DNA of 64,000 nucleotides. It comes from a virus. Taxonomy: Duplodnaviria > Heunggongvirae > Uroviricota > Caudoviricetes. The position numbers and the translations under genes are program-made. The notes under the pieces are model-generated. The model was not told the origin of the DNA. It made no database searches and worked only from the letters and a program-made list of their open reading frames with translations. Shown one piece after another: positions 46,041-62,710 of this stretch. The stretch covers positions 175,836 through 239,835 of IMG/VR virus record IMGVR_UViG_3300033076_000838; one strand, 5' to 3'. The first letter of the stretch is position 1. The number at the start of each line of letters is the position of its first letter.

Positions 46041-49000
46041 ATGGCAATAATCAAATCATATTCACCACTACAAAATTTATCAAATTACGGAACGTTCATA
46101 ACGGATACAAATCCTAATTCAGATTACTTTCGTATAACTGAATTTAACGAAACGTTTACAGGTGGTAAAAATGGATTCTTAATAGAGGGTTCAGAGCATT
46201 TAAAGGAAACAACTGAAATTAAAATTGAAATTTTAGATGTTGATGGAAATCCTGTCTATTACGAACCAGGTAATGGAGTGCCTGAATATTATGAGGGTAT
46301 CTCTAAATTGGTTTCTGTCCACGTTTATGAGGACACACCTATTGGGATAGGTAAGATTACCATTTTGGGAGAATTGAAGACTTATGAGGATGCTAGCGGG
46401 GTTATTCGTGATATTCCAACCGAATGGAGAGGTGCATATAATGTTAAGTGGGAAAAATCATTCCAAATCAATAAAAACCTTACAAATGAAACTCGTGTAA
46501 GATTTTATAGAAGACCATCAATTTCCATAGATGAAATTACCAAACCAATATACAACGTAACAACTCCTTACATAACAAGAAGTGGTTCGGTAGAAGGTAT
46601 TTCTGAAATTCCTATTGCAGGAACTAATTTAAGTAGATGGACTGCAGGAACTCTTTATAAATTAAAAAGAGTGAGTGGTGATGGTTGGACTGCATCAATT
46701 GATGAAAATACAATTACGTTATCAGATTTAGGATATACGGCAACTGTCAAAGAGGTATTAAATACCGATGAAATTTTAGTTGATATTCCATATACAATCA
46801 ATAATATTGTAACAAATTTTACACAAAGTAGTTGGACATCTTCATTTGAATATTTAGATGGCCAAACTTTTACGGAATCTGCATTGACTGGTTCTTTTGC
46901 TAAAATAAACATTTCAAATCTTAAAACATTTGTGGGTGATGTAGCAAGGGTAAAGATATTCCGTAAATCTCGTAACGATGTTGGTGATTATGTTTTAGTA
47001 CAAGAATCAAAATTAGAATCTACTGAATTATTGAGAGATTTGGGTGCAAGTGGTACTACCGATATTTCGTATGGCAATTTTACACAAACAAATTTAGAAA
47101 CATATTGGACAGGTTCATCTAATTTGCATCCAACAATCAATTTGGATAAGTTATATGCATCGGTAAAACCTGCAGATGGGTATAGTGGAGTGCAAACTCT
47201 ATATACAACACAATCAGTTTCCGTTTCTAAGGATGTTGAATACACTCTTACGTTTAAAACTCTTTATAGTGGTTCGGTTGATAATACAAAATCGTTACGT
47301 GCATATTTGAGTTCATCAACTTACACTCAAGATTTTTTAACTCTATCGGGTTCTGCAATATATCAAACAAAACAAGATATAACTAAAAATATTATTGCAA
47401 ATCCAATAAGTGGGTCGGTAGATACTAAATTAGTATTTGAATTTAGTGGAAGTGGATGGCATGTATCAAATGTGAGTTTGAAAAACGCACAAGAAACATC
47501 ATTTTCACCTGATGAATTTACAATTGTACAAGATGTGTCAAAAAATGTATCAACTGAAACTTTTGATTTCCGTTTTGAATTTTACGATATAAACAACAAT
47601 TATATTCCGGTTGATGTATTTGCTACAAAACAATTTACTGGCGGTAATAATTTCCCAACTAGTGCAAAAATTCTTTTACTACAATCGGATAAATCGGCTT
47701 TCCGATTTACAACAGGTTCGGTAGCAAATCCACCCTTTCAACAAATTGGGTTTACAACTACTCGTCAAAACATTGCAGGTGGTATTACATATGGTCGTTC
47801 GGTATTTGATATAACGGGTAGTTATATTGAACCAACACACTATTCACAATCGAATGGTACAATTATGGATTATCCTGGTGCTTTACATTCATCAAACGAT
47901 GCTGGATTTATTGTGCAAATTGATGAATTTAGTGGTTCATTAGATGTGCCAGGAAGTACAAATCTTATTAGAGTTGGATTTATTACTTACACTGCATCGG
48001 GCGATGGACTGGAAGAATATGAAACCATTTATAGATTAGAAGATGGTGATAACGCACCTGGTCTATTTGCTTCTTCAACTGCTAATCAATTCATATATAA
48101 AGCAACGAATTTATCTTTAAATCCATCAACTCAAGTTATTACGTTTGATGTAAGAAGAAAAAATTTAGGAGTTAGTGGTACTACAATCACTGTCAATTCA
48201 GGTAGTCAATTTGGAACAGCATCAGCAATTACACTTTTATCCGATGACCCATCAACCGCAGTAGCAACTTATTATTTATCTGGTTCTACTTTTAACTATA
48301 CATCGGGTTCAGCAACTTATTTTTTCAGTGCATCTGATGGTTATGGTATTGATTATCATGACACAATTAAGATTACACCTATTAAAATATTAGATGGATT
48401 ATCAGTAACACTTACAAATGAAAATGCTACTTTACCTGCTAAATCAACTGGATTTGTGGAAAGTGGTTCATTCAGTTTGACAAGTGGTTCGGTAAGTGTA
48501 AAAGTTGGTAATGAAACAATTACATTTGATGATGAAGGAGATGGACAAGGAAATAACACATTTGCTATAACATCAGTAAGTGGTAGTACCGGTATATCCG
48601 TAAATTCATCAAACCCAACTACAAATGAATATGGAATCACTACACTTAATGGTGTAGATAGTGGTTCTATAAATGTAGTGGTTAGATACAAAGATGGTAG
48701 TGGAGATACAACTGACGTAACAAAGATTGTAACTTATACAAAAGCAAAAAGAGCAACTCCGGTAGTTATTTCATTATTATCAAATGATGCACAATCAGTA
48801 ACCAAATCAAAAACAGGTGTATATGGAACTCCATCAAATTTTACAATTTCAGTAAATGAAGGTGGTTCGAACTATTCATATTCAAATAGTGGAGCAATAA
48901 ATACGTTTTATGTTTCAGCAATAACAGGTGCACCCACACCAACCAATGCAACAATAACACCAACTACACCATCTGCAGATACTGGTACGACAGTAAATTT

Positions 49001-51284
49001 AACCATTGCTTATGTAAATTCAGAAGGTATATCCGGTACGATTTCAAAAACTCATAGAGTAAGTGTTACAATAGATGGTAGTGATGGTACAAACGGAACA
49101 AATGGTACTGATGGTAATGATGGTGCACCGGGAGCAGATGGACCGGGTGTAGTATTCAGAGGGCCGTGGAGTTCTACTACAACTTATTATGATACTGATG
49201 ATTATCCGACTCGTAGAGATGCAGTTCTATACAACGGAACTTATTACGCAACAAAAACAAATGCAACTACAAACTTAAATAAACAACCAGATACTCAAAC
49301 TGCTTTTTGGGAATCATTAGGTACTGATTCGTATTTTGTAGCAGCTGAAATTGCAATATTTAGAGAATCATATGTAAAAGAAACTATAAACGTTGGTACA
49401 AATAGTAGTGGTAATGCAAATATTACTATTGCAGGTGGTACAACATCACCATATATTTCAATCGGTCAATCAACAAAAGGATATAATCAAACTGGTGCAT
49501 GGATTGGTAGTGATGGTACAAATGGTAAATTATCGTTAAAAAGTGCATCAAATTCTCTTTTATGGGATGGTACAAATTTAACTATAACAGGTGGTGGTAC
49601 ATTTAGTGGAGCGTTATCTGCAGCAAGTGGAACATTTACCGGTGCCTTAAGTGGTGGTACAATTTCTATCGGTAGTGGTAATAGTATTTTTAAAGCAGAT
49701 TCAGACGGAATTTATTTAGGAAACGCAACATTTGCTTCTGCACCATTTAGAGTAACTCCTGCAGGTGTTTTAACTACAACATCAGGAACTATTGGTGGAT
49801 GGACAATTGGGTCATCTACTTTGACAGGAGGTGCAGCAACATTAAATAGTAGTGGAGCGATTTCAATCGGTAGTGGTAATAATATTTTCAAAGCAGATAG
49901 TAATGGTATATATGTAGGTAACGCTACATTTGCAGATGCACCATTTAGAGTATCACAAGCAGGTGCAGTAACTGCTACAAATTTAACTTTGACCGGTGGT
50001 AGTTTAACTATTGGTAGTGGTGGAACGTATGCAAATATAAATTCCGCTGGTAAATTAACTGCAGCGAATGTTGATGTTTCTGGTCGTATTACTGCTACCG
50101 AAGGATTTATTGGAGATTGGGTATTAACTGGTCCTAACTTATATGCATCGGTAGGTACGAAAAAATTACAATTAGCAGCAGGAAGACCTGCTATGGAATT
50201 ATATGATGGAGCATCAGTAGTAGTGGATGTCAATGCAAATACTGCTTTATCAGATAGGTCTGCGGGTTCGATAACACCATCACCCGGCACACTCAATTCT
50301 TACAACGAACCTGTATATTATGCATTCTACGATAATCATTCGGGTCCAACATATTCTTATACAAATACTCCTGATAATTTAGGGCCGAATCAATCTACCT
50401 TTACAATTTCAAGTGGAAATGCATTAATAGGTCAGACCTGTACAATTTCAGCTACGGTCTCAGGTGGTTCAAATTCATTTATTGCATCCGGTGATGATTC
50501 ACATGGTAAATATTTAGAATATATGGAATGGAGATTTTCATATGGATTTAAATTAGTAACACCATCCCAAACTATCTATGTAACAACTCCAACTTTATAT
50601 GGTGAGGTATTACATCAAATCGGTGATTATACAATGAATGCATCATATGGTACATTTACTTTGAGTACATCGGTTACATTAGAAGCAGGAACATATTATA
50701 TAACACCCGTATTAAATAATGTTTATGCAGCTGCAATATTATCTGCACCAAATTTACCTGGTCCTTCAACGTTCCAAGTATATATGAGAACACCACTATT
50801 AAGTTCAATAAGTGCAGCAGTACCTGTATCAAAAACTGAATTATGTGCAGGTGGTTTCCAAGTTGTATATGATACATCAAAATATTTAGAGGTAAAACGT
50901 GCTAATGAAACGGATTTTGTAAAAATTGGTGGTGGATTGACGGTTACAGGCGATGTTACTGCAAATACATCTTCGGATATAAAATTAAAAGAAAACTTAG
51001 TAAAAATTAAAAATCCGCTTGAAAAAGTATCTTTAATAAATGGATATACTTATGATTGGAAAGAGGGTTTTGAAGATATTCATACTAACAAAGGAAATGA
51101 TATTGGAGTTATAGCACAAGAAATAGAATTAGTATTACCACAATTAGTAGCAACTCGTGATAATGGATTTAAGGCCGTGAGATATGATAAAATTGTTGCA
51201 CTATTAATCGAAGGTATAAAAGAATTGGTAAATAAAACCGAAGAGTTGGAAACTGAAATAAAAAAATTAAAAGAAGATAAATAA
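46041..51284 (+). CDS. Tail fibre protein with C-terminal intramolecular chaperone (peptidase S74)
   Basis: Short GXY collagen run, duplicated 'SIGSGNxIFKADS...APFRV' unit, C-terminal SSDIKLKEN...GYTYDWK...GVIAQEIE...VRYDKIVALLIEGIKEL. Confidence 0.9.
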   Translation: MAIIKSYSPLQNLSNYGTFITDTNPNSDYFRITEFNETFTGGKNGFLIEGSEHLKETTEIKIEILDVDGNPVYYEPGNGVPEYYEGISKLVSVHVYEDTPIGIGKITILGELKTYEDASGVIRDIPTEWRGAYNVKWEKSFQINKNLTNETRVRFYRRPSISIDEITKPIYNVTTPYITRSGSVEGISEIPIAGTNLSRWTAGTLYKLKRVSGDGWTASIDENTITLSDLGYTATVKEVLNTDEILVDIPYTINNIVTNFTQSSWTSSFEYLDGQTFTESALTGSFAKINISNLKTFVGDVARVKIFRKSRNDVGDYVLVQESKLESTELLRDLGASGTTDISYGNFTQTNLETYWTGSSNLHPTINLDKLYASVKPADGYSGVQTLYTTQSVSVSKDVEYTLTFKTLYSGSVDNTKSLRAYLSSSTYTQDFLTLSGSAIYQTKQDITKNIIANPISGSVDTKLVFEFSGSGWHVSNVSLKNAQETSFSPDEFTIVQDVSKNVSTETFDFRFEFYDINNNYIPVDVFATKQFTGGNNFPTSAKILLLQSDKSAFRFTTGSVANPPFQQIGFTTTRQNIAGGITYGRSVFDITGSYIEPTHYSQSNGTIMDYPGALHSSNDAGFIVQIDEFSGSLDVPGSTNLIRVGFITYTASGDGLEEYETIYRLEDGDNAPGLFASSTANQFIYKATNLSLNPSTQVITFDVRRKNLGVSGTTITVNSGSQFGTASAITLLSDDPSTAVATYYLSGSTFNYTSGSATYFFSASDGYGIDYHDTIKITPIKILDGLSVTLTNENATLPAKSTGFVESGSFSLTSGSVSVKVGNETITFDDEGDGQGNNTFAITSVSGSTGISVNSSNPTTNEYGITTLNGVDSGSINVVVRYKDGSGDTTDVTKIVTYTKAKRATPVVISLLSNDAQSVTKSKTGVYGTPSNFTISVNEGGSNYSYSNSGAINTFYVSAITGAPTPTNATITPTTPSADTGTTVNLTIAYVNSEGISGTISKTHRVSVTIDGSDGTNGTNGTDGNDGAPGADGPGVVFRGPWSSTTTYYDTDDYPTRRDAVLYNGTYYATKTNATTNLNKQPDTQTAFWESLGTDSYFVAAEIAIFRESYVKETINVGTNSSGNANITIAGGTTSPYISIGQSTKGYNQTGAWIGSDGTNGKLSLKSASNSLLWDGTNLTITGGGTFSGALSAASGTFTGALSGGTISIGSGNSIFKADSDGIYLGNATFASAPFRVTPAGVLTTTSGTIGGWTIGSSTLTGGAATLNSSGAISIGSGNNIFKADSNGIYVGNATFADAPFRVSQAGAVTATNLTLTGGSLTIGSGGTYANINSAGKLTAANVDVSGRITATEGFIGDWVLTGPNLYASVGTKKLQLAAGRPAMELYDGASVVVDVNANTALSDRSAGSITPSPGTLNSYNEPVYYAFYDNHSGPTYSYTNTPDNLGPNQSTFTISSGNALIGQTCTISATVSGGSNSFIASGDDSHGKYLEYMEWRFSYGFKLVTPSQTIYVTTPTLYGEVLHQIGDYTMNASYGTFTLSTSVTLEAGTYYITPVLNNVYAAAILSAPNLPGPSTFQVYMRTPLLSSISAAVPVSKTELCAGGFQVVYDTSKYLEVKRANETDFVKIGGGLTVTGDVTANTSSDIKLKENLVKIKNPLEKVSLINGYTYDWKEGFEDIHTNKGNDIGVIAQEIELVLPQLVATRDNGFKAVRYDKIVALLIEGIKELVNKTEELETEIKKLKEDK

Positions 51285-52552
51285 TGCCTTTACCTAATAG
51301 TGGTCCTATAAAAATGTCCGATATTAAAGCTGCATTAAGCACTGCTTCAAATTCATTAAGACAATATAATGTTATTGCTAAAGCAGCAACAGGTCTTAGT
51401 AAGTTTGATATACCAGATGTTATGTCTGAATTTTATGGATATAGTAGTACTCCAACTCCGACAGTTCCAACACCTACTCCAATAGTACCAACACCAACAC
51501 CGGAAGTACCTTCACCAACCCCAAATTATACTCCACCAACACCAACACCTACTACACCGGAAACTGGATTAAGTGTTTATTTAGGAACGGATTCAGAGGT
51601 AACATGTGGTGGTGGTGATTATGATTATGTAGATATTACTGTCTATGGAACTACCATTTGTGATGCAACGTCAATAAAAACATTACCACAATATGTGTTA
51701 AACGATTTACCATCAAGTGCATATTTTTATGTTTCTGACATAGTTGGTGGTACACGATATTATAGAAGATTTAGAGTTTATGGTAGTGGTGCAACTACAG
51801 CCGGAACTTGTACTGAATGTGCAGTAACCCCAACACCTACACCAAGTGTTCCAACTCCAACACCAATAGTACCAACACCGGATTATTATGCACCTACGCC
51901 GGATTATACCCCACCAACACCAACCTATGTTCCACCAACACCTACATTATCAATTGATTCGGGTTGTGTAAGTTATGAAGGAACTGGTTATATAAATTTA
52001 TCAGCATCGGGTGGTTCGGGTAATTATAAATACCATATTGGTCCATCGGTTATCGATTTCAACAATCCTTCTGCATATAACGGAGTTCAGAATGCTTCTA
52101 ATTTAGCAGATAATGCAGGATATTATGTTGCGGTTTATGATTTAACTTATGGAACTAAAAGTGCAACAACTCGTGGTATAGATTGTCTTCCTGCTCCAAC
52201 TCCAAGTGTTCCTACACCTACACCAGAAGTACCAACACCTACACCAGAAGTACCAACACCTACACCAAGTGTTCCAACACCTACACCGGCTATTACTGGT
52301 TGGAATTATTCAATAGGTATTGGTACAGGTGACCCAGGTAGTAGTGGAACTGCATGTGTAAACGCCCAATATGGTTCATATTATGGAACTGTCTATTCAA
52401 ATCAATGGTCTGAATTAATTGGTGGTAGAATTTATTATAATTACGATGGTTCGCCATTTAATGATAGTGGTATATTCTCTGATGGATTATCATATGGATA
52501 TTTTAGTGCAGGTGGACAATATCAAGCAGGTGGAGTTTGTGAAATATTATAA
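51284..52552 (+). CDS. Pro-Thr-repeat (mucin/extensin-like) tail-fibre-associated protein
   Basis: Three PTPT-rich blocks separate Cys-bounded globular domains. N-terminus MPLPNSGPIKMSDI...MSEFYG is a type often found after phage fibres. Confidence 0.75.
   Translation: MPLPNSGPIKMSDIKAALSTASNSLRQYNVIAKAATGLSKFDIPDVMSEFYGYSSTPTPTVPTPTPIVPTPTPEVPSPTPNYTPPTPTPTTPETGLSVYLGTDSEVTCGGGDYDYVDITVYGTTICDATSIKTLPQYVLNDLPSSAYFYVSDIVGGTRYYRRFRVYGSGATTAGTCTECAVTPTPTPSVPTPTPIVPTPDYYAPTPDYTPPTPTYVPPTPTLSIDSGCVSYEGTGYINLSASGGSGNYKYHIGPSVIDFNNPSAYNGVQNASNLADNAGYYVAVYDLTYGTKSATTRGIDCLPAPTPSVPTPTPEVPTPTPEVPTPTPSVPTPTPAITGWNYSIGIGTGDPGSSGTACVNAQYGSYYGTVYSNQWSELIGGRIYYNYDGSPFNDSGIFSDGLSYGYFSAGGQYQAGGVCEIL
52195..52290 (+). 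repeat. Coding 21-nt tandem repeat (PTPTPEV / PTPTPSV)
   Basis: CCAACACCTACACCAGAAGTA-like units; related blocks near 51449-51560 and 51827-51944. Confidence 0.85.
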
Positions 52553-52558
52553 TAAAAT

Positions 52559-54013
52559 ATGAAAAGATTAGTTACATTTGGTGATAGTTGGACTGCAGGA
52601 CATGGTGTAGAAACTGATATACAATATAAAGAAATTATTTCTCCAAATTTGTTTATTGATTATTTACGTTTGATGAACGGATGGCCAAGATTTTTAGCTA
52701 ATAAATTCGATATTCCATTTGTTAATTTAGCATTTTGCAATAAATCAAATAATGAGATTTATGAAGATATTGTAAAGTGGAAACCACTATTAGATAAAGA
52801 TGATTTAATAATTGTGATGCTCTCATATCCATATAGAAAATATGGTAATCCAATTATAGATGTTGGTAATATTATTAATGAATTAAATGGATATAACTAT
52901 TTTATTATTAATTCATTTTTTCCAACATTTTCAAATGTAGAACCTTCTGATATTTCTGATTTAAATCTTAGTAGATTTTTAAATATAGATGGGTGTGTTA
53001 GTGATGGGTTAGTTAAATGGGAATATGAAAATAAACAAAGTTGTTGGGAATATGGATTTAGAAAAGTTAATAATTCTGATACATTTTTAGGTGGTGATTA
53101 TCACCCAAATACAATTGGATATAAATTAATAGCAGATGAAATATATCTTAGATTAAAAAATTATAATTCATATAAATTATTAACTATACCTATTGCAGCA
53201 CCTACGGAATTATTTAGATTTCAAACATCATTATTTGAATTTTTTCAAAAAAGAGTTTATGGTGATGATGCTAATATGAACGCAATTATTATTATGTTAG
53301 ATAGAAATCAACATAATAGTTCACATAAATCTCTCCCGTGGACTATCGATTTAAGAAATAAATTATTACCAGGAATACATAAAGAGTTAGACCAATCTAA
53401 AAAACATCCACATTATAATTCTATAAATGTGTTTTATCCATTAAAATATATGGTAGATACATTACCAGATGAAAAAGTTTTATGTATTATAGATTGTGAT
53501 GTAGTACCTTTAAAGGTATATGATGGTATAATCCCAAATGATGATGAGGTTATTACATGTGATATTTACGAAAATTGGCATATGCATATTAAAAATCCAT
53601 CACAAGAAAATTTTTATAAAATAGAACCATTTTTAGAACATACTGATTATGAATATATGGATGGTGGTTTTGTTCCGATTATTATAAATGTAAAAACTCT
53701 TAAAAAAATATTAAATGATGTAATTAGTATTTCTGAAAGATTAATCGATAGTTTAGATGATGATGATATGTTTGGTTGGTGGGGTACAATGGCCGGATTT
53801 CAAATTGCATGTCATAATCATAAAATAAAATGTATTTCACAAGATAATACATATGTTCCAAATATAAATGATTTATCTGATAATCATTATTTTTGTCATT
53901 ATTCATGTGACCCATTGTTTGCAAAAAAAGATTATCCAAATTGGGATATAACTCAATTCAAATCTAACAAATTTTATAATCATATTAGAATGTGGTTGAA
54001 AAATTTTAAATAA
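52559..54013 (+). CDS. SGNH domain fused to a GT-A glycosyltransferase resembling plant HPAT/SGT1 (GT95/GT96)
   Basis: TFGDSW...HPNTIGY, followed by FRFQT...YNSIN...IIDCD...GWWGTMAGF...CHYS. Confidence 0.6.
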   Translation: MKRLVTFGDSWTAGHGVETDIQYKEIISPNLFIDYLRLMNGWPRFLANKFDIPFVNLAFCNKSNNEIYEDIVKWKPLLDKDDLIIVMLSYPYRKYGNPIIDVGNIINELNGYNYFIINSFFPTFSNVEPSDISDLNLSRFLNIDGCVSDGLVKWEYENKQSCWEYGFRKVNNSDTFLGGDYHPNTIGYKLIADEIYLRLKNYNSYKLLTIPIAAPTELFRFQTSLFEFFQKRVYGDDANMNAIIIMLDRNQHNSSHKSLPWTIDLRNKLLPGIHKELDQSKKHPHYNSINVFYPLKYMVDTLPDEKVLCIIDCDVVPLKVYDGIIPNDDEVITCDIYENWHMHIKNPSQENFYKIEPFLEHTDYEYMDGGFVPIIINVKTLKKILNDVISISERLIDSLDDDDMFGWWGTMAGFQIACHNHKIKCISQDNTYVPNINDLSDNHYFCHYSCDPLFAKKDYPNWDITQFKSNKFYNHIRMWLKNFK

Positions 54014-54025
54014 ACAATAAATATA

Positions 54026-54033
54026 TATTTATA
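54026..54033 (+). promoter_or_regulatory. Putative late promoter TATTTATA
   Basis: Exact motif 17 nt before 54051. Confidence 0.6.
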
Positions 54034-54050
54034 TACATAATCAAATAATT

Positions 54051-54605
54051 ATGGTCACAATTATAGATAATGTTTTAACTAAAGATGAATGTAAAATATT
54101 AATAGAACTTGGTTCTAAAAATATGATTAAAGCCGGAACTTTGGGTAAACAAATTGATGGATATAGAACCGCCGATGGTAGTTGGTTATTAGAACCAAAC
54201 GAATTAGTTGATAAGGTAAAAAATATGATTTCCGTAATGACAGGAAATCCAATAGAAAACCAAGAAGAAATTCACATAGTTAAATATGATATTGGTGGTG
54301 AATTTAAAGTTCATACTGATTATTTTCATAGTAATGAAGAATATTATTCAGAACATATAAAACGAGGTGGACAACGAATAATGAGTTGTTTGTTTTATTT
54401 GAATGATGATTTCGAAGGCGGTGAAACTGAATTTCCATTAAAAAAATTAAAAATAACGCCAAGACTTGGTAGATTATTAATGTGGAGTAATGTTACACCA
54501 GATGATGCTTTAGATTATGAAAGTTTACATGCAGGATTACCCGTTATAAGTGGAACTAAATATATAGCAGTTATATGGATTAGAGAATCTAAATTTAAAA
54601 AATAA
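54051..54605 (+). CDS. Prolyl 4-hydroxylase-like 2OG-Fe(II) oxygenase
   Basis: HIVKYDIGGEFKVHTDYF, GGQRIMSCLFYLND, GGETEFP, SLHAGLPVISGTKY...WIR: the plant/algal P4H pattern. Confidence 0.85.
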   Translation: MVTIIDNVLTKDECKILIELGSKNMIKAGTLGKQIDGYRTADGSWLLEPNELVDKVKNMISVMTGNPIENQEEIHIVKYDIGGEFKVHTDYFHSNEEYYSEHIKRGGQRIMSCLFYLNDDFEGGETEFPLKKLKITPRLGRLLMWSNVTPDDALDYESLHAGLPVISGTKYIAVIWIRESKFKK

Positions 54606-54609
54606 ATAT

Positions 54610-55113
54610 ATGCATTGTGATTTAGGTAAAATATTAAATGAATATGAATGTGAATATATAAAAAAAGAATTTTTACATTTTATGGAAATTGGTAAAATCA
54701 ATTTAGAAAATGATAATAATTTTTACAAAAATTCATATGGGGGTAATACTCCAGTTACTTGGTATTTATTGGGTAGATTTTTACCATTAGTAGAAGAAAA
54801 AAGTGGAAAAAAATTAAAAACAGCCAATCCATATATTAGAATTTATAAAAATGGGTCTACTCTACCAAATCATATAGATAGACCTGGATTAGATTGGACT
54901 ATATCAGTTTGTATATTTACAAATTTAGATAATGATTGGCCATTATATGTAGAAGATATTACCCATAAGGATGGTAAAGTTCCATATGTTACACAACAAG
55001 GATATGCTGGATTAGTTGATGGTAGAATTACAAATCATTGGCGTGATGAATTAATTTGTAATGATTCTGAATATGTAATTCAATTATTTTTACATTATAC
55101 TGAAATAGAATGA
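54610..55113 (+). CDS. 2OG-Fe(II) oxygenase
   Basis: YIRIYKNGSTLPNHIDRP (HxD), HWRDEL, QLFLHY. Confidence 0.8.
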   Translation: MHCDLGKILNEYECEYIKKEFLHFMEIGKINLENDNNFYKNSYGGNTPVTWYLLGRFLPLVEEKSGKKLKTANPYIRIYKNGSTLPNHIDRPGLDWTISVCIFTNLDNDWPLYVEDITHKDGKVPYVTQQGYAGLVDGRITNHWRDELICNDSEYVIQLFLHYTEIE

Positions 55114-56147
55114 GTTATAAATTATTAGTTACAACCGGAGCAGGAAATACCATACAAGGTGGTTCTGATATTTGGACTAATTATTTTTTAGAATTAGTAT
55201 GGTCTACTTTACCTACAAAAAAAGAATGGAGGTTATTAATAGATTCTAAACGACCAATAACATTTGAAGAAAAATCATTACCGAAGGGATTACAATACCA
55301 CTTTCATTATGATGATGTTGAAAAAACAAATAAATGGTTAGAAGAAAGTGAAATAATTCATGTCCTACATCCACATTATCACAAACGTCCACATCTTTGG
55401 CATTGGGAAGATAAATTTGGAACTGTCTTTGTTCATGCATATGCAAGAGAAATGACGGAAGTGATTGATAATAATCCAGAAATAAATCGATTACAATTCG
55501 GAACAAACGTAGATGTTGAATTTTATGATGAATATCTTGCAACATTCAAACGAAGAATATGGGTAGGTAATAATCCAACTCAAATGATTGATGAATTTCC
55601 AAATTACACTTACAACGTTCCAAATTTTTATGAATTTAAAAATAATTTACCACTTACAACTCATATAGATAATGGTAAAATAGGATTTGCTTCTCGTGCT
55701 GAATCTCGTAAGTGTTTGCATTGGATGAATAATCATACAGGGTTTGTATTGACAAATCAATTTGATGTGAAAAATTTAAGAGATACTACAACATATTCTC
55801 TAAATGGTATTGATTTATTCCAGTGGGACCCATCTATACATCATTTTTTTATGTTAAAAAATTGGGGTATATTTCATGGTGCATATTTTAAAGAACCATT
55901 TGGATATTCAATATTTCAAGCAGTTGATTATGGTAAATTACCAATAATAAATAAAGATTGGGCATCAGAAGTTGATTACAAATATAGAGTTTCAACTAAA
56001 AATGAATTTGATGAATGTGTGAAAGAAATACTAAATGATTCGTATGAAGAAAGAGAACAAAATTGGTTAAATCTCAAAAATTATATGAAAAAATTTGATA
56101 ATAAAGACGAATGGGTTGATAAAATCCGTACCGCAATTTTAGCATAA
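55110..56147 (+). CDS. GT-B glycosyltransferase (GT4-like)
   Basis: KEPFGYSIFQAVDYGKLPII resembles the EPFG...EA..G.P motif. Confidence 0.7.
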   Translation: MSYKLLVTTGAGNTIQGGSDIWTNYFLELVWSTLPTKKEWRLLIDSKRPITFEEKSLPKGLQYHFHYDDVEKTNKWLEESEIIHVLHPHYHKRPHLWHWEDKFGTVFVHAYAREMTEVIDNNPEINRLQFGTNVDVEFYDEYLATFKRRIWVGNNPTQMIDEFPNYTYNVPNFYEFKNNLPLTTHIDNGKIGFASRAESRKCLHWMNNHTGFVLTNQFDVKNLRDTTTYSLNGIDLFQWDPSIHHFFMLKNWGIFHGAYFKEPFGYSIFQAVDYGKLPIINKDWASEVDYKYRVSTKNEFDECVKEILNDSYEEREQNWLNLKNYMKKFDNKDEWVDKIRTAILA

Positions 56148-56196
56148 TTCCAAATATTTATTTTTCAGATTTTTTTACGTTTTGTATATTTTTATA

Positions 56197-56329
56197 TATT
56201 TATATACAAAGGGGGTAGGGGGTTAGCTACAAAGCTAATAACTACTACACTATAACTTATACTATTTTATTAATACTATATTTTATATAAAGCTTAATAA
56301 AGCCTATCTCCGTAATCTCGGAAATATAT
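56197..56329 (+). other. Non-coding element: late-promoter motif, G5-TA-G5, small hairpin, AT-rich tract
   Basis: TATTTATA at 56197, GGGGGTAGGGGG at 56211-56222, TTAGC/GCTAA hairpin, ACTAT-like repeats. Confidence 0.45.
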
Positions 56330-56335
56330 TTGGTT

Positions 56336-57106
56336 ATGACATCATTACAAGATTTAGAATATCTAAAAAACAATCTTACAAACAATCAGGAATTTAACGA
56401 ATCACATGAAGTGGAGGATAAACCAGTTCCATATCGTTGGTCACATGGTGCTACTGATTTACACTTAGGAGATGGTTTAATTGTTTACTCAATTATTCAA
56501 TATATGCGAGCAAAAGTTTGTGTATGTTTGGGTAGTGGTGGTGGATTCATACCTCGTATAATGACTCAAGCTAGATACGATTTACATCAACAAAAAATAT
56601 TTGAAGGTGATAATAATTTAAGTTGGGGTGATATTGGAGTTACATACGTTGTTGATGCAATGAACGGAATTGGTGGAAATGTTGATTGGTTTAGAGAAGA
56701 ATCATTTTTCAGAAGAACATTTCACCCACGTATCATCAGTAATACTACCGAAAACGCATTTCATAATTTTTTTGTGTTAAACGATATTCAAATTGATTAT
56801 TTACATATCGATGCAGGACATTCATATGAAAATGTAAAGGAAGATTTTGATTTATACACTCAATTATTATCACCAAATGGTATTGTATCAATTCACGATA
56901 CTGACCCAAATTATGCAGATAGTTATATCGTTACAAATGAAGTGAAAGATAGAGGTGATTTTGATGATTGGCACGGACCGATTACTTTTGCAAAAGAATT
57001 AAAAAATAATTCAGAGTGGGAAACATTTGACCTATTTAATTTTGGAATTCAAAAAAATAAACCAGCATCCACAGGAATAACATTAGTTAGAAGATGTCAA
57101 AAATAA
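56336..57106 (+). CDS. Class I SAM-dependent methyltransferase (Methyltransf_24-like)
   Basis: VCLGSGGG, LHIDAGHSYE, LSPNGIVSIHD. ATG at 56336 (the track starts at TTG 56330). Confidence 0.85.
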   Translation: MTSLQDLEYLKNNLTNNQEFNESHEVEDKPVPYRWSHGATDLHLGDGLIVYSIIQYMRAKVCVCLGSGGGFIPRIMTQARYDLHQQKIFEGDNNLSWGDIGVTYVVDAMNGIGGNVDWFREESFFRRTFHPRIISNTTENAFHNFFVLNDIQIDYLHIDAGHSYENVKEDFDLYTQLLSPNGIVSIHDTDPNYADSYIVTNEVKDRGDFDDWHGPITFAKELKNNSEWETFDLFNFGIQKNKPASTGITLVRRCQK

Positions 57107-57942
57107 ATTTAGTTACTGTCGTTGGCCATAACACAACTATGTTAGGACATATGATTCAACATTATAAAAATATAGTTGATGAAATTCATGTGGTTGTTTA
57201 TAGACAAAACGTAAATGATGGTATATTGGATGAAGTTAAAAAATTAGGCATAATACCAATCAAAGTAGTTACTGAACCAAAATTTAATTGGGAACGGGTA
57301 ACTGAATTATATAATGAAATTAAACAAACCAAACCAAACGAATGGTGGGTAGTTTCAGACGATGATGAATTCCACATTTATCCAAAACCAATTAAAGAAC
57401 TGATTTCAGAATGCGAAGAAAATGGTTGGGATTTTATAACAGGTGGATTCATAGATAGGATAGGAGAAAATGGAGAATTTCCAATCGTTGAGAAAGACTC
57501 TAATATTTGGGAAAAGTTTCCACTTGCTGGATTTTTTAGGCATCCGATGAGTGGGGCTTGTCCTAATAAAGTTTGTGTAATGAAAGGATATGTTGATGTA
57601 ACCCCTGGTCAACATTATGCTAAAATTGGTGATAGTGATACTTGGAGAGAAAGGGGTTGGAATCACCCAAAACGATACCCATATGGTAATGGTGAAGGAT
57701 TTATACAAGTTCATCATTTTAAATGGGATTCGACCGTTTTAGAAAGATTAAAAGAAGTTTCTGAAACAAAAGAAGATTATACATTTTGGAAAGAATATAA
57801 AAAAATGTATAGAGGCATACAAATAAATGATTGGAAAATTGATATTAATAATCCTACATTTATGATAGAAAAAATGACAGATAATACTCATTCTGATTAT
57901 TCAAAATGGGATAAACTAACAAGAATTATACTTCATATATGA
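57094..57942 (+). CDS. GT-A glycosyltransferase (GT2-like)
   Basis: HMIQHY...; WWVVSDDDEF (DxD); HHFKW. Confidence 0.75.
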   Translation: MSKINLVTVVGHNTTMLGHMIQHYKNIVDEIHVVVYRQNVNDGILDEVKKLGIIPIKVVTEPKFNWERVTELYNEIKQTKPNEWWVVSDDDEFHIYPKPIKELISECEENGWDFITGGFIDRIGENGEFPIVEKDSNIWEKFPLAGFFRHPMSGACPNKVCVMKGYVDVTPGQHYAKIGDSDTWRERGWNHPKRYPYGNGEGFIQVHHFKWDSTVLERLKEVSETKEDYTFWKEYKKMYRGIQINDWKIDINNPTFMIEKMTDNTHSDYSKWDKLTRIILHI

Positions 57943-59414
57943 AAGATAAATTAGCATTAATAGTTCCATATCGCGATAGACAAGACCACTTAAATGTGTT
58001 TATACCACATATGACTAAATTCCTCCAAAACAAAGGAATTGATTATACTATTTTTGTAGCAGAACAAGCAGATGAAAGACCATTTAATTATGGTAAGTTG
58101 TGTAATGCGGTTATAAATGAAATATCCGATGAATACACTTATTTTTGTTTTCACGATGTTGATATGTTGCCATTAACGGATGATTGTGATTATGGATATC
58201 CAGAAACACCAATTCATTTAGCAACAAATGTAGAGGCACATAATAATGAATTACCATATCCACAATATTTTGGTGGGGTTATATTGATTAATAGAGAAGA
58301 TTTTGAAAACTCAAACGGATATTCAAATGAATATTGGGGGTATGGGTTTGAAGATTTAGATTTATTACGAAGATTAGAAAAATCAGGTGCATATTTAGAA
58401 AAATACTATGATTTAAATCAAACATATTCTTATTATGATAAGGATGATACTTTACCATATAGAATAGAAAATGTAAATATTTCAAATAGTAATAAAACAC
58501 ATATATTAAAAGCAATAAATTTACCAAAAGGTAATAGAATTTATGGAATACAAAATCCTATAATGAAAACCTTTACTAATTCATCATTTACAATTTCATT
58601 ATGGTTTAAAGACGATTCCGATAACACCGATAAAAAGAATTTATTTTCATTTGAAGGGTGCGATACCGGATTATTTTTATCGGCAGATGGAAATTCAAAC
58701 ACTTATGTGATTGGTCAAATTTGGAATAAAAATCAAGAACACTTTGAAGTATCCGTTGAATATTATAAAAATCGTTGGAATAATGTAGTGTTTGAATACA
58801 ATAAAGAACAAAATTTAATTAGAATTGTTCTAAATAATAAAAAAATTGTAGAAAGAAAATTATACAATTTTGAAATGTTTGATTATAGTGATAAATGTAT
58901 TAAAATATCAGATTTAGAAACTGACATTAAGTTAGCAAATATAATAACCTTTAATAATATTATTTCAGATTTACATATTAAAAAATTGTATTACGAAGGA
59001 AACGAATATTTGGAAATTTTATCATCAATTGATGGATGTACTCCAACTAATATTTTTACATTTGATTCATTATATAATGGTAGATTTATATTAGATAAAG
59101 GTAAAAATTCTAATCATATTAAGTTAGAAGGAACATATTCACCCTATACCGAAATGATAACATTATCAGATGTAGTTTATTTACCAACTAGAATTGAAGG
59201 ATTATATAAATCATTAGTTCATAAAGAAGATACACATATTATAAACAAATATTATAATTTTGACCCAGATATTGAGGAAAATGCTGATATATTCTTTAAT
59301 GAAGTTTTACGTGATAAAATAGATTTTACTAAATTAGGATTATCTAATGTAAAATATACTTTATTAAATAATGAAGAAAAAGAAAACTATGTTTTAATAA
59401 AAATAGTAACTTAA
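57939..59414 (+). CDS. GT7-like galactosyltransferase with inserted LamG-like domain
   Basis: IVPYRDR, FNYGKLCN, FHDVD, YFGGV, GYSNEYWGYGFEDLD; LamG-like insert; GLSNVKY end. Confidence 0.8.
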   Translation: MKDKLALIVPYRDRQDHLNVFIPHMTKFLQNKGIDYTIFVAEQADERPFNYGKLCNAVINEISDEYTYFCFHDVDMLPLTDDCDYGYPETPIHLATNVEAHNNELPYPQYFGGVILINREDFENSNGYSNEYWGYGFEDLDLLRRLEKSGAYLEKYYDLNQTYSYYDKDDTLPYRIENVNISNSNKTHILKAINLPKGNRIYGIQNPIMKTFTNSSFTISLWFKDDSDNTDKKNLFSFEGCDTGLFLSADGNSNTYVIGQIWNKNQEHFEVSVEYYKNRWNNVVFEYNKEQNLIRIVLNNKKIVERKLYNFEMFDYSDKCIKISDLETDIKLANIITFNNIISDLHIKKLYYEGNEYLEILSSIDGCTPTNIFTFDSLYNGRFILDKGKNSNHIKLEGTYSPYTEMITLSDVVYLPTRIEGLYKSLVHKEDTHIINKYYNFDPDIEENADIFFNEVLRDKIDFTKLGLSNVKYTLLNNEEKENYVLIKIVT

Positions 59415-59418
59415 AAAT

Positions 59419-59643
59419 ATGATAAATACTATAATTAAAAATGAAAAGGCTGTAAAAACGTTAGAACGATTAGCAGATGAATTAGAAAATTTAAAAACAA
59501 AAGAAACCGATTTATCATTCGTTCCGGCAATGATTTTTCTGATATTAGAAAGATTCAGAACATCTAATACTCCGTTTCCTATAACATTTTTCACCAAACA
59601 ACCAAATAAAAAAAATAAAAAAAATGGCAAAACAATTAAATGA
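59419..59643 (+). CDS. Small hypothetical protein
   Basis: ORF track; shares VKxLERxADxLE with the next gene. Confidence 0.45.
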   Translation: MINTIIKNEKAVKTLERLADELENLKTKETDLSFVPAMIFLILERFRTSNTPFPITFFTKQPNKKNKKNGKTIK

Positions 59644-59863
59644 TTCTTCGATAGAAGAAAGAGGTGTTAAGGCATTAGAAAGAATAGCCGATACATTAGA
59701 AGACATGAACGATTGGGTTTATGCATTAGAAACCGATGCCTGGTCTGAAAGATTAGAGTGGTATTTGAATGAATTTTATATGATTGCAAAAGCTAAAACA
59801 ATTGGTTCAGTAAATAGACCAGTAAGAGATGCCGAAAGACAAGAAACCGATAGTGAAAAGTAA
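59624..59863 (+). CDS. Small hypothetical protein
   Basis: ORF track; A-rich start context. Confidence 0.65.
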   Translation: MAKQLNDSSIEERGVKALERIADTLEDMNDWVYALETDAWSERLEWYLNEFYMIAKAKTIGSVNRPVRDAERQETDSEK

Positions 59864-61271
59864 GCATAAATTAGGAGTTATTGTTCCATATCGTAATAGA
59901 GAAACCCAACTTAGTAGGTTTTTAAAACATATGGATAAATATCTAACTAATTATGATTATCAAATCTTCATAGTAGAACAAAACGGAAGTGCTCCGTTTA
60001 ATCGTGGTAAACTATTAAATATAGGTTATAAAATTGCGTGCGATTATAATTGTGATTATTTTGTATTTCATGATGTTGATATGTTACCAGAAAAAGTAGA
60101 TTATTCATATACGGATAAACCACTACATTTGGCTACTCATTTACAAGAAAATGATTATGAAACATCATTTTTTGATTATTTTGGTGGTGTTACTCTTTTT
60201 AACAAAGAAGATTTTGCTAAAATAAATGGGTATTCTAATGAATATGTTGGATGGGGGTTTGAAGATGATGATTTATTAATTCGTTGTATTCAATCAGATT
60301 TAGAAATTGATTTTGAAAATTCTAATGATGATGATATTAAAGAAATTGAAACATTTAAATTTGATGGAGATTTTTCATATATTGAATTACAAAAAATAAA
60401 AAACGCATCTTTTTTATCTGATGATTTTTCCATTTCAGTAATGGTTAAACCATCCGATGTTCAAATTAACCCAAACAAACAATATGATGAATATCCAATA
60501 GTTTCTATACCAGGTTATAACATAGGAATATTTTATAATTCATTTCGTAGATTCTTTTGTCAAATTTTTGATAAAAATAAAAATCCATATTCAATAACAA
60601 CTGATATTTTGGGTGAGCGTTGGGTTCATTTAACTATGGTGTTTAAAAACAACACCGAAGTTTATTTTTATTTAGATGGTCAATTAATAGATACTATAAA
60701 AATGAATGAAGAAATATTAGAATTATCTACTGATAAAATATACATAGGTTCTGCTAGTGGTAAAAAGGATAATAAAGATTTCTTCTATGGTAATATTGCA
60801 AATGTAGAAATGTATGATATTGGATTAGAGGCTAATGAAGTTTTAGAAATATACAAAAATAGTTTAAAACCTAAAATTAGAAATTTTGGAAATTTTAAAT
60901 CATCCGAATACCTATATTTCCAACTACTACCAGAATTATCAAATGATACAACCTGTGTAGAATTAGCAAATGAATATAAACCAAAATTAAATAATGTTAA
61001 ATTAGAAAAATTAAAACAATCATTTAATACTTTTTTACCTAAACCATATAGAAGAGATGGTAAGTTTAAATCATTAAAACATCAATCTAATTCATCAGTA
61101 GGAAATCGTTGGGTTCAAACTGAAACTAGAAAAAATCAATTAAGATATTATAACGAAGTTAGAACAAATATTATAGATTATCATATTGATGGGTTGAATA
61201 CATTACGTTATACGGAATCTGAAAAAATAGTAATATCACCAAACACATTACATATAAAAGTAAATTTATAA
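59829..61271 (+). CDS. GT7-like galactosyltransferase with inserted LamG-like domain
   Basis: IVPYRNR, FNRGKLLN, FHDVD, GWGFEDDD; LamG-like FYGNIANVEMY; DGLNTLRY. Confidence 0.85.
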   Translation: MPKDKKPIVKSKHKLGVIVPYRNRETQLSRFLKHMDKYLTNYDYQIFIVEQNGSAPFNRGKLLNIGYKIACDYNCDYFVFHDVDMLPEKVDYSYTDKPLHLATHLQENDYETSFFDYFGGVTLFNKEDFAKINGYSNEYVGWGFEDDDLLIRCIQSDLEIDFENSNDDDIKEIETFKFDGDFSYIELQKIKNASFLSDDFSISVMVKPSDVQINPNKQYDEYPIVSIPGYNIGIFYNSFRRFFCQIFDKNKNPYSITTDILGERWVHLTMVFKNNTEVYFYLDGQLIDTIKMNEEILELSTDKIYIGSASGKKDNKDFFYGNIANVEMYDIGLEANEVLEIYKNSLKPKIRNFGNFKSSEYLYFQLLPELSNDTTCVELANEYKPKLNNVKLEKLKQSFNTFLPKPYRRDGKFKSLKHQSNSSVGNRWVQTETRKNQLRYYNEVRTNIIDYHIDGLNTLRYTESEKIVISPNTLHIKVNL

Positions 61272-62710
61272 TGAAATTAGGAGTTTGTGTTCCATATAGA
61301 AATAGAGAAGAACATTTAAAACAATTTATACCGGCGGTTAGTAAATATTTAACCGAACAAGGTATAGATTTTTGTATTTATTTTGGTCATCAAACTGATG
61401 ATAAATTATTTAATAGAGGTGCAATGAAAAATATTGCAGCTAAACACGCATTTGAGGATGGGTGTGATTATATAGTTTGGCATGATATTGATATGATACC
61501 AGAAGAAGGATGTGATTATTCTTTTCCAACAGAAACTCCAATTCATATTGCAACTAATATCTCACAAATGGATTATAAATTAAAGTATGAAGAATACTTT
61601 GGTGGTGCTGTAATTTTTTCAAAAGAACAAGTCGAAAAAACCAACGGATATTCTAATGATTATTGGGATTGGGGTATGGAAGATGATGACCTATTTTGGA
61701 GGTGTGTATTGGAGGGGTATGTAGATGATTCTTATATGAAATTTCCAAATGAACCAAAAAATTTTTTATCATTTAATGGTAAGGATTCATACGTTCACAT
61801 ACCGGCCACTCGTAGTTTACGAAATTTAACATCACGTTCTCACACAATTTCGGTTTTAGTTCGTGCACATCAACAAGAAGAAAAAGTTCCAATTTGGTTA
61901 GTTGGTGATGAACAACGGAGATTTTGTGAATATCCAATATTAAGAAGACCGGGGTATGATTATGGACTTAGTTATAATAATAGTAGAGCATATACTGCAC
62001 AATTATGGAATAACCAACGAGAACATCTATATCAGTGGATGAAACGATATGAAAATCGTTGGACAATCGTAACGTTAGTTGTTGATGAAAATAATATTCA
62101 TTTTTATATGAATGGTAAAGAATCGGATGCAAGGCATGGAACTGGTACTCATTCTCCACAATATTTTGAAGGAATGTTGAAACGTTATGGTATGGTTGAT
62201 TATTATTTAGGAACAACTACATCAGTTGGAAAAGATGATGTAAATAAATGGTTCAAAGGAGATATTGCAGAAGTTAAAATGTGGGATAGAGCTTTATCAA
62301 AAAATGAAGTAGAAAATATTGCAAATACTACTTCAACCGATGGTTTAATTTTACACTATGATTTCAAAGATGGTGGTGTTGATGATAAAAGTGGTAATGG
62401 TAATGATGGTATTGCATATAATTGTGAAAATAAATTAGAACCGATTCAAATTCCATATACTATTATTCCACATAGAAGACCGGGAAGATTACGTTGTTTA
62501 CCTCATAAAGATGAAGGTTTGGTAAAAATAGGTGGTGTTGATAAATGGGCAAAGGGTGAAACTACTGCAAGAAACGAAAGAAGATATGTTTTACAAATGC
62601 AACAAGGAAAATGGGATTATAAATCAGATGGAATTACACAATTAAAATATGAATTAGTTTCAATTGATGAAATAACTCCTAAAGCAAAATTGATAAATGT
62701 AAAACTTTAA
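61271..62710 (+). CDS. GT7-like galactosyltransferase with inserted LamG-like domain
   Basis: VPYRNR, FNRGAMKN, WHDID, WGMEDDD; LamG-like FKGDIAEVKMWDRAL; DGITQLKY. Confidence 0.85.
   Translation: MKLGVCVPYRNREEHLKQFIPAVSKYLTEQGIDFCIYFGHQTDDKLFNRGAMKNIAAKHAFEDGCDYIVWHDIDMIPEEGCDYSFPTETPIHIATNISQMDYKLKYEEYFGGAVIFSKEQVEKTNGYSNDYWDWGMEDDDLFWRCVLEGYVDDSYMKFPNEPKNFLSFNGKDSYVHIPATRSLRNLTSRSHTISVLVRAHQQEEKVPIWLVGDEQRRFCEYPILRRPGYDYGLSYNNSRAYTAQLWNNQREHLYQWMKRYENRWTIVTLVVDENNIHFYMNGKESDARHGTGTHSPQYFEGMLKRYGMVDYYLGTTTSVGKDDVNKWFKGDIAEVKMWDRALSKNEVENIANTTSTDGLILHYDFKDGGVDDKSGNGNDGIAYNCENKLEPIQIPYTIIPHRRPGRLRCLPHKDEGLVKIGGVDKWAKGETTARNERRYVLQMQQGKWDYKSDGITQLKYELVSIDEITPKAKLINVKL

Follow-up and report, generated by a model that had tools for sequence, protein, structure and literature searches.

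The stretch of DNA analysed here, referred to as the window, comprises 64,000 nucleotides of a tailed phage (Caudoviricetes; record IMGVR_UViG_3300033076_000838) and carries, immediately behind a tail fibre gene, genes for a Pro/Thr-repeat protein, a glycosyltransferase resembling the plant enzymes HPAT and SGT1, and two oxygenases of the prolyl-hydroxylase type. The window corresponds to bases 175836-239835 of the 287-kb IMG/VR phage record, which was estimated by CheckV to be complete. The genome has a G+C content of about 30% and contains baseplate, primase and SbcCD genes. An original prediction, made from the letters alone, had read the region from 51284 to 62710 as a pathway for O-glycosylation of hydroxyproline (Hyp), and all the open reading frames (ORFs) that it named were recovered at their positions in the ORF list. 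The cluster proteins are numbered P0001 to P0010 in gene order, and positions are those of the window unless the genome is named.

Upstream of the cluster lies an ORF (46041..51284, + strand) for a 1747-aa protein, which is fibre- or spike-like since it ends in a Peptidase_S74 intramolecular chaperone domain (PF13884, 50.2 bits). The gene for P0001 (51284..52552, +; 422 aa) follows directly, its start ATG sharing one base with the TAA of the fibre gene (TAATG), in agreement with the expectation of a PT-repeat protein directly behind the tail fibre. The fibre gene sits directly 5′ of the PT-protein gene in relatives as well (synteny in loci L003, L006, L009 and L012). The genes 3′ of P0001 all lie on the same strand with short gaps between them. 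A scan for sigma-70 promoters and terminators returned fewer sites than in shuffled sequences, and was uninformative on operon structure. GenBank phages gave no match to the locus by megablast or to P0002 by tblastn, and therefore no cultured relative is at hand. The hosts are probably heterotrophs from marine or fresh waters. Searches of NCBIfam returned no match for the cluster proteins, and those of PHROG none for P0001, P0002, P0005, P0007 and P0008.

P0001 is the candidate substrate. It consists of a conserved 58-aa N-terminal domain and three small Cys-bearing globular modules, which lie between and after three Pro/Thr tracts at residues 53-96, 179-224 and 299-339 (nucleotides 51440-51571, 51818-51955 and 52178-52300). 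The tracts are 41 to 46 residues long with 15-16 Pro and 10-14 Thr in each (36% Pro), and are built from the heptad VPTPTP[EIS], which appears in the DNA as a period of 21. Pro accounts for 13.5% of P0001, compared with 3.5% in long ORFs of the same genome, and no other protein across the 287-kb genome has such tracts. P0001 had no match in Pfam, and phmmer searches with its four modules, run on the complete genome and on every locus fetched, returned orthologues but no paralogues. Among the homologues, Pro/Thr linkers are kept in every relative with the full cluster, with differing repeat units (PTPTPEV, PTPDYVPP, TPAP and TPAPNVTPQV). A constant Pro/Thr composition despite a changing repeat unit fits selection on composition, as for a modified linker.

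Two side observations concern related proteins. In a sister clade (L009-L012), the P0001 homologues (L009:6543-8189, L010/L011:6573-8189, L012:1539-3239) carry a C-terminal domain of about 150 aa that begins with Cys and ends with His-Asn. Its matches to Hint-domain Pfam families were weak and below cut-off; one possibility is that it is a Hint module by which the Pro/Thr-linker protein processes itself. Outside the window, at genome 80958-82472 (+), a 505-aa protein appears to have an N-terminal hydrophobic segment resembling a signal peptide. It also contains a Lys/Glu-rich tract and a long mucin-like stretch rich in Ala, Ser and Thr, with TPPP motifs. This protein might serve as a further substrate for glycosylation or mimic the host surface.

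P0002 combines two domains. Its N-terminal part (52559..53170, +) is SGNH/GDSL hydrolase-like, with a GDSW block I and a DYH block V, and scored below the cut-off of Pfam GDSL; in the sister clade this domain is a separate 216-aa gene (L009; Lipase_GDSL 21.8 bits). A second GDSL/SGNH-like gene, 35% identical to the P0002 N-terminus, was seen at window 2842-3114 (-). The C-terminal domain (53171..54013, +) is an HPAT/SGT1-like retaining GT-A glycosyltransferase and the proposed initiating transferase, and the earlier assignment of this domain held. It matched the Pfam HPAT profile (PF23452) with 26.2 bits (cut-off 23.9) over a partial stretch of the profile, and a stand-alone relative, P0016, reached 46.5 bits over profile positions 7-249 of 307, while 14 control genomes gave no match to PF23452. 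In an alignment of the P0002 C-domain with 17 relatives (A1, 18 sequences), the DxD motif (D108 and D110 of A1) was invariant.

Fold comparison led to the same families. The model of the P0002 C-domain had a predicted local distance difference test score (pLDDT) of 93.7, and its Swiss-Prot fold matches at ranks 1-9 were all HPAT or SGT1 proteins (HPAT1-3, RDN1/2, NOD3, PLENTY and SGT1; E 1e-10 to 4e-9, template modelling score 0.63-0.68). Lipopolysaccharide (LPS) glucosyltransferases of family GT8 came next in the ranking at about 1e-6. SGT1 (GT96) scored as well as HPAT (GT95). Among solved structures, the domain resembles retaining GT6/GT8 GT-A enzymes; sequence and fold searches returned no HPAT/SGT1 family member in the PDB. 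The HPAT-like family is small, with 97 cluster representatives at E 1e-3 among 1.84 billion proteins. Its domain is found either as a single-domain protein of about 276 aa or joined to another soluble domain, of the SGNH, oxygenase or glycosyltransferase kind.

The two genes that follow encode the oxygenases. P0003 (54051..54605, +) belongs to Pfam PF13640 (2OG-FeII_Oxy_3, 59.6 bits) and is, as judged by its sequence, a bona fide member of the peptidyl-prolyl 4-hydroxylase (P4H) family of the collagen type, dependent on 2-oxoglutarate (2OG) and Fe(II). Its residues 2-183 match the solved P4Hs of B. anthracis (5iax, 3.7e-29) and Chlamydomonas (Cr-P4H-1, 1e-23), human collagen P4H alpha-2 (P4HA2, 2.9e-19) and PBCV-1 vCPH (1e-12). 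The HTD motif (aa 88-90), the His of LHAG and the 2OG-binding Lys of GTKYIA align with B. anthracis P4H (5iax/3itq). The call of a plant/algal-type P4H was thus right as to the P4H, and its plant/algal part was lost, since the Bacillus anthracis enzyme ranks ahead of that of Chlamydomonas. Three further PF13640-type matches, one of them below cut-off, lie elsewhere in the genome (window 5899-6153 (-) and 7789-8040 (-); genome 114846-115151 (+)).

P0004 (54610..55113, +) had no match in Pfam and was assigned by invariant residues and fold. Its family keeps R77, Y79, H88, D90, R91, H143 and R145, which make up an intact HxD...H...R set. The model (pLDDT 94.6) has a PHD2/PKHD-like fold, and its nearest folds are PHD2/EGLN, Pseudomonas PPHD, PBCV-1 vCPH, OGFOD1 and PKHD-type hydroxylases. 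The second oxygenase of the original prediction was thereby confirmed, and P0004 is probably an active, prolyl-hydroxylase-like 2OG/Fe(II) oxygenase as far as the model can tell. In most other phages, a P0004-type domain is fused to the P4H, in either order. The label 'ferrochelatase' that PHROG attaches to P0004 was rejected, as the protein has an oxygenase fold.

How often the HPAT-like enzyme and the oxygenases travel together was determined from a scan of IMG/VR with A1, which yielded 80 phage loci with G+C contents of 29-60%. Dereplication at 85% glycosyltransferase identity left 43 lineages; statistics with one representative per 60% cluster were judged too coarse. A P4H, a P0004-type oxygenase (detected by profile search) or both adjoin the HPAT-like enzyme in 26 of the 43 lineages, usually directly upstream. 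Both oxygenases are present in 22 lineages, mostly as one two-domain protein of 380-400 aa that ends 0-3 bp before the glycosyltransferase. With four PF13640 genes in the 287-kb genome, about one per 70 kb, adjacency by chance should be rare. Three complete phages of 32-36 kb have the glycosyltransferase and (PT)n proteins and no PF13640 gene. They were considered as a hydroxylase-free counter-example, which was rejected because the profile search found a P0004-type oxygenase directly upstream of the glycosyltransferase in each.

In other genomes, the coupling takes the form of gene fusion. The HPAT-like domain is fused to a PF13640 domain in P0035, L055 and L056, and to a Cupin_8/JmjC domain in P0036 and in Pseudohongiellaceae genomes (contigs up to 1.3 Mb). 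In Planctomycetaceae, it is joined to an FkbM methyltransferase and to a glycosyltransferase of PF11397 (L213:5134-6837, L214:3405-5795), which is the family of Gnt1, the enzyme that adds N-acetylglucosamine (GlcNAc) to the hydroxyproline of Skp1. Pro-rich proteins were also seen near such bacterial genes. In L213 a (PT)n protein lies 4 kb from the PF11397/HPAT-like fusion. An uncultured gammaproteobacterium (L219:6001-11956, on a 1.07-Mb contig) has a P0004-type oxygenase domain 2 kb away from its HPAT-like gene and, 4 kb away from that gene, a 422-aa protein that consists of extensin-like (PPSPSPK)n repeats.

The whole cluster is kept in two phage clades, despite an identity of only 51% between their glycosyltransferases. 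The clade of the window (L003, L006) has the order SbcCD, fibre, PT protein, GDSL-HPAT-like fusion, oxygenases, GT-B-like enzyme, methyltransferase, GT2-like enzyme, GT7 enzymes and radical S-adenosylmethionine (SAM) enzyme. The sister clade is arranged likewise, except that a fused oxygenase comes first, followed by a separate GDSL gene and then the HPAT-like gene. In addition, a PF11397 glycosyltransferase gene lies directly 3′ of the HPAT-like gene there (L009:10828-11610, 73.1 bits; L012:5878-6660). None of the window proteins matched PF11397 in the Pfam search.

The neighbourhood of the glycosyltransferase was then examined for Pro-tract ORFs, defined by at least 8 Pro in 20 residues. Of the ORFs within 1.5 kb of the glycosyltransferase, 6.9% were of this kind, as against 1.6% of those farther away than 3 kb. 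Comparison of ORFs nearer and farther than 3 kb gave an odds ratio of 3.6 with p = 0.001, the control being internal to the loci and the p value indicative, as the lineages are related. A Pro-tract ORF was found within 3 kb in 17 of the 43 lineages. The tracts near the enzyme are (PT)n, (PV)n, (PA)n or mixed, and often begin right after a CxxC motif. The proteins that bear them are often 1000-2200 aa long, and one is a Collar-domain fibre. A fibre of 1068 aa was noted in a T4-like phage (L004:14909-18115 (-), the same as L008), where its gene is separated by 4 kb from one for an HPAT-like enzyme that stands alone. The fibre is collagen-like at its N-terminus, contains a Phage Tail Collar domain and carries a (PT)30 tract in its C-terminal part, ahead of a small Cys-rich domain.

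In a reverse test, 80 loci were taken solely by a (PT)6-coding DNA pattern, and the counts that follow apply among the matches listed. A P4H was present in 4 of the 80 loci, and in two of these the P4H gene comes after the (PT)n gene. In L165, which comes from an unrelated phage, genes for a radical SAM-SPASM protein, a PF11397 glycosyltransferase (841-1794, 122.6 bits) and an epimerase come next; in L150, the P4H gene is followed by an epimerase/dehydratase gene and two unnamed genes. By these sequence assignments, the pairing of a P4H with PT proteins recurs in the company of one or the other of the two glycosyltransferase families that act on Hyp in eukaryotes.

Downstream of the oxygenases, the cluster continues with further sugar enzymes. 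P0005 (55110..56147, +; 345 aa) had no match in Pfam, PHROG or NCBIfam and has no named family. It is possibly a GT-B glycosyltransferase by a language-model feature lead (Glycos_transf_1/AGT clusters, 0.96-0.97) and is conserved in L003, L006, L007 and L009-L012. Of the earlier 'GT4-like' enzyme, then, the conserved ORF stands, and the family call is a lead from the language model. P0006 (56330..57106, +) is a class I SAM methyltransferase (Pfam Methyltransf_24, 45.9 bits); it had been called an O-methyltransferase, of which the methyltransferase part is supported and the 'O-' part is not. P0007 (57094..57942, +) is a GT2-like (GT-A) glycosyltransferase, as had been proposed, with 29.0 bits on Glyco_tranf_2_4 (cut-off 27.5). 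Both P0006 and P0007 are kept in the two clades.

Three paralogous enzymes close this part of the cluster: P0008 (57939..59414, +), P0009 (59829..61271, +) and P0010 (61271..62710, +). Each combines a GT7 (beta-4-galactosyltransferase-like) glycosyltransferase with a LamG/ConA-like domain recognised by Pfam Laminin_G_3. P0008 scored 77.7 bits on GT7N, 63.8 on GT7C and 33.6 on Laminin_G_3, and the three range over 63-81 bits on GT7N and 64-70 on GT7C, so that both Pfam halves are above threshold in all three GT7 enzymes that had been named. Between P0008 and P0009 lie two small overlapping ORFs of 74 and 79 aa (59419..59863, +), the second of which is kept in L006 and L009 (4e-10).

The locus does not end at 62710 as had been assumed, and sugar-nucleotide genes extend about 15 kb beyond the window. 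The first gene of this island encodes a radical SAM enzyme truncated by the window edge (62737..63999, +). The island (genome 238572-257811, equivalent to L206:573-19812) contains two radical SAM enzymes, three nucleoside-diphosphate-sugar epimerase/dehydratases, an RmlC-like 3,5-epimerase, split thiamine pyrophosphate (TPP)-dependent E1/transketolase-like subunits, a haloacid dehalogenase (HAD) phosphatase and a 1615-aa protein with a cytidylyltransferase domain. This gene set suggests the synthesis of an unusual, possibly branched or deoxy, sugar.

The enzymes of the cluster are best compared with two eukaryotic pathways. In the hydroxyproline-rich glycoprotein (HRGP) pathway of plants and green algae, P4H acts first, and HPAT (CAZy GT95) and SGT1 (GT96) then glycosylate Hyp and Ser, respectively, in extensin-type repeats; HPAT transfers L-arabinofuranose to Hyp and SGT1 transfers galactose to Ser of extensin-type peptides. 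The phage likewise pairs a collagen-type P4H with a glycosyltransferase that matches Pfam HPAT and is nearest in fold to HPAT/SGT1, has Pro-rich repeats in its candidate substrate, and encodes more glycosyltransferases and a methyltransferase in the same locus. Unlike the plant enzymes, which act in the endoplasmic reticulum and Golgi, those of the phage are soluble and would act in the bacterial cytoplasm, and the sequences share only about 15% identity. Plant HPAT and SGT1 are type II membrane proteins of the secretory pathway, whereas the phage enzyme has no anchor. The phage glycosyltransferase also differs in its fusion to an SGNH domain, the repeats are of the VPTPTP type rather than Ser-Pro4, and a second, PHD-like oxygenase is present.

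In the Skp1 pathway of Dictyostelium and Toxoplasma, in which PhyA is followed by Gnt1 (PF11397), a soluble prolyl hydroxylase and glycosyltransferase work in the cytoplasm, as would those of the phage. The occurrence of PF11397 genes after the HPAT-like gene (L009-L012), near a P4H (L165) and fused to the HPAT-like domain (Planctomycetaceae) adds to this likeness. The window itself, in contrast, lacks a PF11397 gene, and Skp1 has a single target Pro instead of repeat tracts. P0003 is of the collagen type and not of the PHD type, while P0004 is PHD-like in fold.

Virus-encoded systems offer partial parallels. The prolyl 4-hydroxylase of PBCV-1, vCPH, is a sequence relative of P0003 (1e-12) and likewise a virus hydroxylase for the virus's own Pro-rich repeats. 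Mimivirus L230, a collagen lysyl hydroxylase/glucosyltransferase, is a virus-encoded hydroxylase for the virus's own repeat proteins, in which hydroxylation and glycosylation are coupled in one enzyme. These are eukaryotic viruses, unlike the phage, and the Mimivirus system acts on hydroxylysine; we know of no Hyp-linked glycan described for PBCV-1 or Mimivirus. Virion glycosylation reportedly influences the immune recognition of mycobacteriophages, among them Che8, Corndog and Myrna. There too, the phage encodes glycosyltransferases that attach sugars to its own capsid and tail proteins, but without a hydroxylase, and with other glycosyltransferase families and target sequences.

We consider it fairly likely that the cluster constitutes a phage-encoded, cytoplasmic system that modifies a phage protein in the following steps. 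P0003 and P0004 would hydroxylate prolines in the VPTPTP-type linkers of P0001, a modular protein that would be co-translated with the tail fibre. The HPAT/SGT1-like GT-A domain of P0002 would then put the first sugar on the hydroxylated linker, most likely on Hyp. The SGNH domain, the GT-B-like, GT2-like and three GT7-LamG enzymes, and the methyltransferase would extend and trim the glycan, for which the downstream sugar-nucleotide genes would supply unusual sugar nucleotides as donors. The expected product would be a protein associated with the fibre, in which stiff stalks, coated with glycan and resistant to proteases, separate the globular modules. The proteins apparently lack signal peptides (N-termini were judged by eye), and the chemistry, which would require O2, would therefore proceed in the cytoplasm of the host, like that of the Skp1 pathway.

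Enzyme families and folds, intact catalytic motifs, gene order, enzyme fusions and Pro-tract enrichment are observed. The Hyp-glycosylation reading gains support from the comparative evidence, namely the oxygenase coupling and fusions, the Pro-tract enrichment, the kept Pro/Thr linkers and a fold nearest to HPAT/SGT1. On these sequence grounds, the phage cassette probably makes plant-like glycoprotein stalks, by a set that recurs in many phages.

What we infer is which protein is modified and at which atom, with what sugar and in what order, and that P0001 is located in the virion. Several points weigh against this proposal. P0001 has no recognisable virion domain or homology to known virion proteins (Pfam, PHROG and phmmer), and its putative role in the virion is deduced from gene position and translational coupling to the fibre gene. 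The P0002 C-domain shares no more than about 15% identity with plant HPAT or SGT1, and has no hydrophobic segment corresponding to the plant membrane anchor, so that the enzyme appears soluble. SGT1 acts on Ser and not on Hyp, and therefore the likeness in fold leaves the acceptor unfixed; the one argument pointing to Hyp is the genomic coupling to prolyl hydroxylases. A supply of UDP-L-arabinofuranose in a bacterial host is unlikely. That the GT7, GT2-like and methyltransferase enzymes act on the same glycan is suggested by conserved synteny in two clades.

The survey of lineages also has its adverse side. An adjacent oxygenase is absent in 17 of the 43 lineages, many of the contigs being fragments. 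No Pro-tract ORF lies within 3 kb in 26 of the 43, which in part is the situation, enzymes without Pro-rich neighbours, that the original prediction had named as speaking against it. Because the lineages are related and the contigs are fragments, the statistics are non-independent. The HPAT-like enzyme occurred in none of the 80 (PT)6 loci among the matches listed, and PT linkers are therefore mostly independent of the module. Taken over phage contigs, the expected co-occurrence of PT-repeat genes with the P4H and the HPAT-like enzyme was mostly favourable, with the oxygenase coupling in 26 of 43 lineages and the Pro-tract enrichment on one side and these last two counts on the other.

The alternative that survives best, although we regard it as unlikely, keeps the same cassette and substrate and places the sugar on Thr, Hyp being a recognition or stiffening element or not needed by the transferase at all. 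Plant SGT1 galactosylates Ser beside Hyp. The fact that SGT1 (GT96) matches HPAT in score in the fold search agrees with a Thr acceptor, as do the Thr-Pro dipeptides kept in every linker variant. In L004/L008, moreover, a glycosyltransferase and a (PT)30 fibre occur with no oxygenase within 10 kb on either side or in the 83-kb contig, but this contig is only 30% complete. A Thr acceptor gives no reason why, in most lineages, the transferase should be so closely coupled or fused to enzymes of the prolyl-hydroxylase type, and members of PF11397, the family of the Skp1 Hyp-GlcNAc transferase, are found in the same positions.

It is more doubtful still that the target of the module is another protein, such as the fibre itself, one of the capsid or tail, or one of the host, and that the PT tracts of P0001 are ordinary, unmodified flexible linkers which share a variable region with the module by chance. 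PT linkers are indeed very common in viral contigs (in the (PT)6 scan, among the matches listed), and in L061, L064, L078 and L034 the oxygenase-glycosyltransferase pair adjoins large function-unknown ORFs with no Pro tract within 4 kb. Against this stand the enrichment of Pro-tract ORFs within 1.5 kb, the order of PT protein, oxygenase and glycosyltransferase kept in two clades, and the finding of L165 and L150, which turned up blind via the PT tract.

A role of the island in making or altering a glycan that is not attached to protein (host LPS, capsule or phage DNA), with the P4H as an unrelated auxiliary gene, is very improbable: the continuation into a large sugar-nucleotide island (epimerases/dehydratases, RmlC-like, TPP, radical SAM and cytidylyltransferase) and a weak feature-level likeness of P0005 to T4 DNA alpha-glucosyltransferase favour it, but both oxygenases are prolyl-hydroxylase-like and not TET/JBP-like (P0003 by sequence, P0004 by fold), the ORFs that were scanned included no membrane genes for the export or polymerisation of polysaccharide, and fusions tie the glycosyltransferase to protein hydroxylases. 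DNA glycosylation was set aside on the nature of both oxygenases and because the only ThyA-family gene of the genome is a canonical thymidylate synthase (it passes TIGR03284), and that gene therefore gives no hint of hydroxymethyl bases.

Returning to Hyp O-glycosylation of the phage's own linkers, the claim of the original prediction that such a modification had no prior description in phages was upheld, as full-text literature searches (hydroxyproline, P4H or HPAT with phages) found none. To our knowledge, glycans linked to Hyp are considered typical of plants, algae and a few protists. In its widest form, the proposal is that many phages and some bacteria carry out cytoplasmic proline hydroxylation followed by Hyp O-glycosylation through prokaryotic relatives of HPAT/SGT1 and Gnt1, making extensin-like glycoprotein stalks on virion appendages, and we give this an even chance of being correct.

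According to a 2022 virome survey, the viral use of P4H 'remains cryptic' (PMC9301287). If the proposed pathway is true, it would provide a function for P4H and account for the place of its genes among the most abundant 'auxiliary' genes in aquatic viromes. The plant GT95 and GT96 families would have viral and bacterial kin, and the phage enzymes would give small, soluble, bacterially expressible relatives of HPAT and SGT1, with the cassette as a compact toolkit for Hyp-glycosylated linkers in bacteria. For the phages themselves, it would represent a new class of virion modification, with possible effects on how the host is recognised, how stable the particle is and how well it withstands proteases or grazers.

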